64,000 nt of DNA from Shigella phage sb2. Positions 50,661-53,600 of this stretch are shown here, in pieces. The DNA is taken from sequence record PQ666540, one strand, 5' to 3'. A program made the position numbers and the translations under genes. The notes beneath the pieces are model-generated. The model was given only the letters and a program-made list of their open reading frames with translations, did no database searches and was not told the DNA's origin. Every line of letters starts with the position of its first letter. Positions within the stretch are counted from its first letter, which is position 1.

Positions 50661-53600
50661 ATGGCCGAGATTAAAAGAAAGTTCAGAGCAGAAGATGGTC
50701 TGGACGCAGGTGGCGATAAAATAATCAACGTAGCTTTAGCTGATCGTACCGTAGGAACTGACGGTGTTAACGTTGATTACCTAATTCAAGAAAACACAGT
50801 TCAACAATACGATCCAACTCGTGGATATTTAAAAGATTTTGTAATCATTTATGATAACCGCTTTTGGGCTGCTATAAATGATATTCCAAAACCGGCAGGA
50901 GCTTTTAATAGCGTGCGCTGGAGAGCATTACGTACTGATGCAAACTGGACAACTGTTTCATCAGGACCTTATCAATTAAAATCAGGTGAATCAATTTCAG
51001 TTGATACTGCAGCTGGTAATGACATTACATTTACTTTACCAACTTCTCCAATTGATGGAGATACTATCGTTCTTCAAGATATTGGTGGAAAACCCGGAGT
51101 TAATCAAGTTTTAATTGTAGCTCCAGTGCAAAGCATTGTAAATTTTAGAGGTGAACAAGTACGTTCAGTACTAATGACACATCCAAAATCACAGATAGTT
51201 TTAATTTTTAGTAATCGTCTGTGGCAAATGTATGTGGCTGATTATAGCAGAGAAGCGGTAGTTGTGACGCCAGCAAGTCTCTACCAGGCGCAGTCAAACG
51301 ATTTTATCGTGCGCAGATTTACTTCTGCTGCACCGATAAATATTAAACTTCCGAGATTTGCTAATCATGGCGATATTATTAATTTTGTTGATTTAGATAA
51401 ATTAAATCCTCTTTATCATACAATTGTCACGACATATGATGAAACAACTTCAGTACAAGAAGTTGGAACTCATTCTATTGAAGGCCGTACATCTATTGAT
51501 GGTTTCTTGATGTATGATGATAATGAGAAATTATGGAGATTATTTGACGGGGACAGTAAAGCACGTTTACGTATCATAACAACTAATTCAAACATTCGTC
51601 CAAATGAAGAAGTTATGGTATTTGGTGCGAATAATGGAACAACTCAAACAATTGAGCTTCAGCTTCCAACTAATATTTCTGTTGGTGATACTGTTAAAAT
51701 TTCCATGAATTACATGAGAAAAGGACAAACAGTTAAAATCAAAGCTGCCGGTGAAGATAAAATTGCTTCTTCAGTTCAATTGCTGCAATTCCCAAAACGT
51801 TCAGAGTATCCACCTGAAGCTGAATGGGTAACAGTCCAAGAATTAGTTTTTAACGGTGAAACTAATTATGTTCCAGTTTTACAACTTGCTTATATAGAAG
51901 ATTCTGATGGAAAATACTGGGTTGTACAACAAAACGTTCCAACCGTAGAAAGAGTTGATTCTTTAAACGATTCTACTAGAGCAAGATTAGGCGTGATTGC
52001 TTTAGCTACACAAGCGCAAGCTAATGTCGATTTAGAAAATTCTCCGCAAAAAGAATTAGCAATTACTCCAGAAACATTAGCTAACCGTACTGCTACAGAA
52101 ACTCGTAGAGGTATCGCAAGAATAGCAACCACTGCTCAAGTGAATCAGAACACCACATTCTCTTTTGCTGATGATATTATCATCACTCCTAAAAAGCTGA
52201 ATGAAAGAACTGCTACAGAAACTCGTAGAGGTGTTGCTGAAATTGCTACGCAACAGGAAACTAATGCAGGTACTGATGATACTACAATCATCACTCCTAA
52301 AAAGCTTCAAGCTCGTCAGGGTTCTGAATCATTATCTGGTATTGTAACCTTTGTATCTACTGCAGGAGCTACTCCAGCTTCTAGTCGTGAATTAAATGGT
52401 ACAAACGTTTATAATAAAAACACTAATAATTTAGTTGTTTCGCCTAAAGCTCTAGATCAGTATAAAGCTACTCCAACACAACAAGGTGCAGTAATTTTAG
52501 CAGTTGAAAGTGAAGTAATTGCTGGACAAAGCCAAGAAGGATGGGCAAATGCGGTTGTAACGCCAGAAACGTTACATAAAAAGACATCAACCGATGGAAG
52601 AATTGGTTTAATTGAAATTGCTACGCAAAGTGAAGTTAATACAGGAACTGATTATACTCGTGCAGTCACTCCTAAAACTTTAAATGACCGTAAAGCAACT
52701 GAAAGTTTAAGTGGTATAGCTGAAATTGCTACACAAGTTGAATTCGACGCAGGCGTCGACGATACTCGTATCTCTACACCATTAAAAATTAAAACTAGAT
52801 TTGATAGTACTGATCGTACTTCTGTTGTTGCTCTATCTGGATTAGTTGAATCAGGAACTCTCTGGGACCATTATACCCTTAATATTCTTGAAGCAAATGA
52901 GACACAGCGTGGTACACTTCGTGTAGCTACACAAGTTGAAGCTGCTGCAGGAACATTAGATAATGTTTTAATAACTCCTAAAAAGCTTTTAGGTACTAAA
53001 TCTACTGAAGCACAGGAAGGCGTTATTAAAGTTGCAACCCAGTCTGAAACTGTTACTGGAACGTCAGCAAATACTGCTGTATCTCCAAAAAATTTAAAAT
53101 GGATTGTGCAGAGTGAACCTACTTGGGCAGCAACTACTGCGATAAGAGGCTTTGTTAAAACTTCATCTGGTTCAATTACATTCGTTGGTAATGATACAGT
53201 TGGTTCAACACAGTCGTTAGAATTATAAGAGAAAAATATCTATTCAGTATAACCATATGAATTAAAACGTGTATTATCAAATTATTTTCCGTTAAAAGCA
53301 AAAGCCGCTGACACAAATTTATTAGATGGTCTAGATTCATCTCAATTCATTCGTAGGGATATTGCGCAGACGGTTAATGGTTCACTAACCTTAACTCAAC
53401 AAACGAATCTGAGTGCCCCTCTTGTATCATCTAGTACTGCTACGTTTGGTGGATCAGTTTCGGCAAATAGTACACTAACTATTTCTAATACTGGAACGGC
53501 AACTCAATTGATTTTTGAGAAAGGACCTCAATCTGGAACGAACCCAGCGCAGACGATGACTGTCAAAGTGTGGGGAAATCAATTTAGTGGGGAATCAGAT

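Follow-up and report, generated by a model that had tools for sequence, protein, structure and literature searches.

Genes 18 and 34 are known from T4 genetics as essential late genes. The product of the latter, the proximal subunit of the long tail fibre, is represented in T4 by several structures (PDB 9x3r, 5nxf/5nxh, 4uxe), and gene 34 of the phage considered here resembles it in the length of 1289 aa, in residue numbering and in the gene order rnh-34-35-36-37-38-t; the difference is that our sequence has two TAA codons and five private missense changes, the latter at residues 860-878, in place of the Y, S, A, S, N, A and L found at these seven sites in T4 gp34 and in the proteins of all other relatives. 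In-frame stops within an otherwise intact gene, flanked by TTA on both sides, recall bypassing in T4 gene 60 and the stop codon reassignment described for some phages, but the locus differs from these systems in the lack of a hairpin, of conservation in relatives and of a tRNA in the DNA analysed, as well as in normal termination at TAA. The third described phenomenon that has to be compared is the erroneous base calling of sequencing-by-synthesis, which shares with this locus the restriction to C>A and G>T, the dependence on preceding bases in one read direction and clustering over a distance shorter than one read; in a consensus, errors of this kind are usually overruled by the other reads, and the likeness is one of pattern only. 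Two-channel chemistry marks C with one label, T with the other, A with both and G with none (PMC11140927), while Illumina base calling is described to confuse G/T and A/C, the pairs that share a laser in earlier four-colour instruments (PMC2532726). Artefacts of library preparation arising from oxidation to 8-oxoguanine (Costello et al., 2013, PMC3616734) belong to the same substitution class, C>A/G>T, but they are scattered, normally have low allele fraction (PMC3616734) and appear as one type per read orientation, whereas here both types alternate and follow the rule of preceding A/T runs described below. Finally, the record of Shigella phage sb4 (PQ666542), 96% identical to our sequence, gives an example of an error-laden phage genome, with many essential genes split by stops and 163 private G:C>T:A changes, 25 of them making stops. 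The DNA analysed here is much cleaner by comparison, disruption being limited to genes 18, 34 and a 30.3-like gene.

The window, by which we mean the whole stretch of 64,000 nucleotides from Shigella phage sb2 (PQ666540), represents the final 64 kb of a T4-like (Tequatrovirus) genome. Identity amounts to approximately 97% with Shigella phage pSs-1, to 96-97% with KNP5 and with sb4, and to 94-95% with both Shfl2 and vB_EcoM_11B_SA_NWU. T4 gene order is kept throughout, beginning with 18-19-20...23-24, hoc, uvsW, baseplate genes, alt, 30, cd and pseT, continuing with alc, rnlA, denA, nrdB/A, td, frd, 32, 59, 33, dsbA and rnh, and ending with 34-35-36-37-38, t, asiA, arn and motA. The synteny rnh-34-35-36-37-38-t was confirmed by tblastn of pSs-1 proteins and by reference annotations. 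The features on which the analysis is based are the following.

50661..54530, + strand: gene 34, long tail fibre proximal subunit, defined by translation, tblastn, PDB alignment and Pfam.
53226..53228, + strand: first in-frame TAA of gene 34, codon 856; TAC (Tyr) in relatives, C>A at 53228.
53250..53252, + strand: second in-frame TAA of gene 34, codon 864; TCA, TCG or TCT (Ser) in relatives, C>A at 53251.
526..528, + strand: in-frame TGA of gene 18 (tail sheath); TGC (Cys) in relatives, C>A at 528.
53228..53288, + strand: private substitution patch of 61 nt with 7 changes, delimited by pairwise alignment to vB_EcoM_11B_SA_NWU.

The preliminary description of this DNA had reported two TAA codons interrupting gene 34 in a frame that otherwise runs to 54530, each one substitution away from a Tyr/Ser-type sense codon, and both statements hold. 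From ATG 50661 to TAA 54528-54530 the gene comprises 1289 sense-equivalent codons plus the terminator, 1290 codons in total, and translation of this frame gives no stops beyond the terminator and the two internal TAA. The identity and continuity of the gene, also proposed at that stage, are supported by colinearity with T4 and pSs-1: gp34 of pSs-1 covers residues 1-1290 at 96.7% identity in tblastn with the stop symbols opposite Y and S, and T4 gp34 from the PDB (9x3r_M, 5nxf) aligns with identical residue numbering, segments 792-945 and 865-1289 of 9x3r_M falling on the same numbers of the predicted protein. The 425 residues following the second stop match T4 gp34 865-1289 with E = 1e-252, and two Pfam domains, Gp34_trimer (PF21446) and Gp34_2nd (PF21560), are both found downstream of the stops (E = 1.5e-32 and 1.3e-37, respectively). 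Outside the patch, synonymous and nonsynonymous differences from pSs-1 are distributed as 79:17 upstream and 52:18 downstream. Since differences past the stops are mostly synonymous, this region should be regarded as constrained coding sequence and not as a decaying pseudogene.

One might expect that a gene interrupted in this manner is naturally split into two, or that the stops are ochre knock-out markers introduced into a laboratory strain; two stops lying so near each other within a single essential structural gene might look like an engineered knock-out. The first of these options requires a second product to be initiated somewhere downstream. The upstream ORF (50661-53228) encodes 855 aa, TTG 53508 follows as the next in-frame start, the first in-frame ATG past the stops is codon 966, devoid of a Shine-Dalgarno motif, and the earliest weak motif accompanies TTG 53736; in agreement with the absence of a restart signal noticed earlier, no in-frame start codon combined with a Shine-Dalgarno motif was found after the second stop of gene 34. 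Orthologues ending at this point, which the preliminary description had named as the observation that would speak against an interrupted gene, were looked for and not encountered: all annotated relatives carry gene 34 as a single CDS of 3870-3873 nt, and the uninterrupted frame seen in every relative is broken in the window alone. As for markers, the genetic background is that of a wild pSs-1-like phage (97% identity) and not of laboratory T4, the stop in gene 18 is an opal codon, and a design would hardly include five added missense changes obeying a base-composition rule. The proposal of an ochre pair thus leaves unaccounted for five missense changes of the same type and context lying within the same 61 nt, and we consider a split gene or introduced markers extremely improbable.

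The preliminary description had overlooked that both TAA codons belong to a cluster of seven substitutions. Compared with vB_EcoM_11B_SA_NWU, the locally nearest relative, the segment 53150-53365 is identical except for these changes, all on the + strand.

53228, C>A: Tyr to stop (Y856*).
53239, G>T: Ser to Ile (S860I).
53244, G>T: Ala to Ser (A862S).
53251, C>A: Ser to stop (S864*).
53267, C>A: Asn to Lys (N870K).
53277, G>T: Ala to Ser (A874S).
53288, G>T: Leu to Phe (L878F).

Every change is C>A or G>T and every one is nonsynonymous, and not a single A or T is altered. With five references, 385 private substitutions were called in the window, 50 of them being C>A or G>T, which corresponds to approximately 0.05 expected per 61 nt against 7 in the patch; when the 50 changes were placed at random 20,000 times, the largest 61-nt cluster contained 4. 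Such clustering lies far outside what chance would give.

Among all relatives and collections searched, the changes are confined to this record. The wild-type state is found at all seven sites in seven isolates (sb4, Shfl2, PE37, T4_ev151, pSs-1, KNP5 and 11B_SA_NWU), as well as in three metagenome contigs, in T4 gp34 of the PDB and in one database fragment. Although 718 phage records match the stretch containing the patch, none exceeds 96.4% identity, and the top match differs from the window by the seven changes and two others. Mutated 46-50-mers gave no exact DNA match in IMG/VR, JGI metagenomes or GTDB genomes, and look-ups of the exact protein products (truncated gp34, gp38 and gp35) gave no hits either; a degenerate scan with longer flanks likewise returned no matches, and with shorter flanks it detected one viral contig and three metagenome contigs, all of wild type. 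Protein search with the five missense states recovered one fragment only, again wild type, in an index evidently poor in gp34 relatives, and is weak evidence for the privacy of the changes. Gene conversion from a paralogue was considered as a source of the cluster and rejected, the window having neither a second copy of the mutated segment nor local repeats.

The most informative result of the analysis is the dependence of the changes on sequence context. In the region 53226-53291, taken for the context test, there are 22 ancestral G/C positions. Where three or more consecutive A/T stand directly before the G/C on the + strand, seven of eight positions are changed, and of the remaining 14 none is (Fisher p = 4.7e-5), every change of the patch affecting the first G/C that follows a run of at least three A/T. 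Window-wide, such context is shared by only 25% of G/C sites, and the remaining 44 private C>A/G>T changes occur in it at background level (9/44) and look like ordinary variation. A one-directional rule of this kind, under which C becomes A and G becomes T regardless of which A/T base precedes, looks like a failure of base calling rather than a mutational process. Simple copying of a neighbouring base, either by dislocation or by lag in four-colour chemistry, was rejected as an explanation, as two of the seven new bases (53239 and 53277) match neither neighbour.

From this pattern we infer that the two TAA codons are most probably a local artefact of base calling or assembly and represent no biological feature. 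They would be two of seven miscalled bases in a short low-quality patch of the assembly. In two-channel chemistry, a lagging signal from the preceding A/T would add the T-label to the current base, and C would then be read as A and G as T; the error may enter the consensus only where good coverage is locally lacking or where it recurs in all reads of one direction. What is observed agrees with this scheme in that all seven changes amount to the gain of one channel, depend on preceding bases and are both private and biologically implausible. Among the explanations listed in the preliminary description, a sequencing artefact alone fits the evidence, while neither the ochre pair nor recoding or suppression in late genes does. 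Oxidation to 8-oxoguanine was rejected as the sole cause on account of the alternation of C>A and G>T within the patch and the directional context rule. An alternative technical route is offered by the sugar-modified cytosine of T-even-type DNA, which disturbs nanopore base calling (PMC12838424): only C positions on either strand are hit here, but errors of such origin would be expected genome-wide and not in a single patch.

The window as a whole is not of poor quality, and therefore the artefact must be local. At about 30%, the private nonsynonymous fraction falls within what good reference genomes show, and there is only one frameshift. An excess of unselected G:C>T:A changes across the whole genome was looked for and rejected, their nonsynonymous fraction being 72% versus 66% in clean references (p = 0.49). 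With three references this fraction had looked high, at 67%. A few further error spots are suggested by two observations. In uvsW, a second small patch comprises private nonsynonymous transversions at 12553, 12556 and 12562, that is three changes in 10 nt replacing FHEL by CLER within perfectly conserved surroundings. The in-frame stop of gene 18, mentioned in the preliminary description and found as TGC>TGA at 526-528, would truncate the protein approximately 51 residues short of the C-terminus; this isolated C>A probably has the same origin as the patch, although its G[C]G context places it outside the A/T-run rule, which counts against a shared artefact.

The same substitutions may in principle be real in the DNA that was sequenced, whether this came from a defective or damaged genome complemented at high multiplicity, from a single damaged molecule in a low-coverage or metagenomic assembly, or from a mutant stock kept on a suppressor host. 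The altered bases are, after all, present in the sequence, 8-oxoguanine leaves G:C>T:A as its signature in vivo as well, the nonsense codon of gene 18 results from the same substitution type, and the share of private G:C>T:A changes in the window is raised to 13% as against 5-9% in clean references. Random damage or errors of replication, however, are not expected to produce seven changes in 61 nt under a strand-directional context rule, and a lesion on one strand yields C>A alone or G>T alone, but not both. Nor do the 425 codons downstream show any decay, and none of the seven changes is present in any other sequence searched. Since genes 18 and 34 are essential, a sequence with nonsense codons in both can neither predominate in a phage that forms plaques nor be the consensus of a propagating stock. 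Taken together, these considerations make real mutations an unlikely, though not a negligible, source of the patch.

Preservation of the frame across both stops and the intact conserved C-terminus of gp34 beyond them would equally be expected if the stops were read through or skipped, by means of a phage suppressor tRNA, an alternative code of late genes or bypassing similar to that of gene 60. T-even phages do have tRNA genes, in a cluster that lies beyond the DNA analysed; within the 64 kb of the window ARAGORN detected none. TAA, however, is an ordinary terminator here: of the 90 genes in the window it closes 60, genes 34 and 18 among them, at positions that agree with the ends of their homologues, and it closes 23 of the 25 late genes listed (gp28 ends in TGA). 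A reassigned codon would be avoided as terminator and would recur in frame across many genes and be conserved in relatives, whereas internal stops are confined to two genes and are of two different kinds, TGA in gene 18 and twice TAA in gene 34. The recoding or suppression in late genes suggested in the preliminary description is therefore contradicted by the normal use of TAA and by the absence of the stops from every relative, and no tRNA was found within the 64 kb.

Bypassing deserves separate attention, because identical Leu codons, TTA 53223-53225 and TTA 53262-53264, flank the stops in frame, and a jump from the first to the second would skip both, leaving gp34 shorter by 13 residues. 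Matching take-off and landing codons are thus present, but RNA around the stops folds no better than shuffled sequences (MFE -4 kcal/mol, z = +0.79), no take-off hairpin was found, and there is no conserved non-coding gap. In all relatives the supposed gap instead consists of sense codons and encodes a conserved peptide, which argues that no recoding signal evolved at this place. The coincidence of two TTA is probably fortuitous, this being the commonest Leu codon in an AT-rich genome. Skipping or reading through of the stops is accordingly an explanation to which we give very little credence, and just as slight is the chance that the stops are both real and tolerated, full-length gp34 and gp18 being made via a suppressor tRNA encoded outside the window or, for gene 34, via bypassing. 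Were it so, the phage family that has been studied best would gain a new example of recoding, but the evidence points the other way.

If the substitutions were real, gp34 would be cut at residue 855 and deprived of the C-terminal trimerisation domain and of the end joining gp35, and no long tail fibres would be formed. If the patch is the local artefact that we favour, the true phage would have TAC (Tyr856) and TCA (Ser864) and a normal gp34 of 1289 aa. The finding should serve as a quality flag, genes 34 and 18 of this record being checked against reads before pseudogenes or split genes are annotated, and the rule revealed here, by which the first G/C after an A/T run turns into A (from C) or T (from G) in one direction only, may help to spot consensus errors in AT-rich phage genomes.

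Substitutions private to the window, i.e., absent from the five reference relatives, are met in several genes besides gene 34, together with a deletion and an additional ORF, and these features are as follows.

526-528, + strand: in-frame TGA in gene 18 (tail sheath), TGC (Cys) in all relatives
689-1342, + strand: ORF encoding about 217 aa, located in the interval from gene 18 to gene 19
2059, + strand: private Trp>Leu at residue 14 of the portal protein gp20, TGG>TTG
7775-7777, + strand: three neighbouring private substitutions in gene 24, GAT>ACC (Asp>Thr)
12553-12562, + strand: three private nonsynonymous transversions within 10 nt, uvsW codons 23-26
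27658, gene on - strand: private Trp>Leu in DNA ligase gp30
30098/30099, - strand: 2-nt deletion relative to pSs-1 in a 30.3-like gene (about 29823-30276)
58572-58859, + strand: dense block of 37 private substitutions in gene 37 (distal tail fibre)

The uvsW cluster, composed in order of T>G, A>T and T>G and converting the peptide FHEL into CLER, is surrounded by approximately 130 nt matching pSs-1 and KNP5 exactly, and has the appearance of another small patch of errors. The gp20 and gp30 changes are each G:C>T:A and affect positions occupied by Trp in 5/5 references, while the gene 24 codon is likewise GAT in all five. The deletion falls into a GC-rich spot (GGGCGCA--GCCC in the alignment with pSs-1) and puts the small non-essential 30.3-like gene out of frame. 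The gene 37 block, in contrast, differs in pattern from the gene 34 patch of clustered private changes: synonymous and nonsynonymous substitutions are intermixed there, and the block represents mosaic hypervariability of the kind that is usual in the receptor-binding region.

The close relative Shigella phage sb4 (PQ666542.1), which served as a reference, is itself represented by a heavily error-laden record. Its essential genes are often annotated in fragments (uvsW, alt, gp27, gp48, ligase, rnlA, td and gp37), and G:C>T:A changes account for 163 of its 666 private substitutions, 25 of these 163 creating stops.

The ORF following gene 18 is common to pSs-1 and sb4, where it is annotated as hypothetical, and is missing in KNP5, Shfl2 and 11B_SA_NWU. 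This ORF possibly represents a mobile gene that inserted at the site. As for the gene 18 stop itself, comparison with the relatives reduces it to one private C>A at position 528, with the sequence on either side being identical to sb4; this TGA would cost the essential tail sheath protein about 51 residues at its C-terminus.
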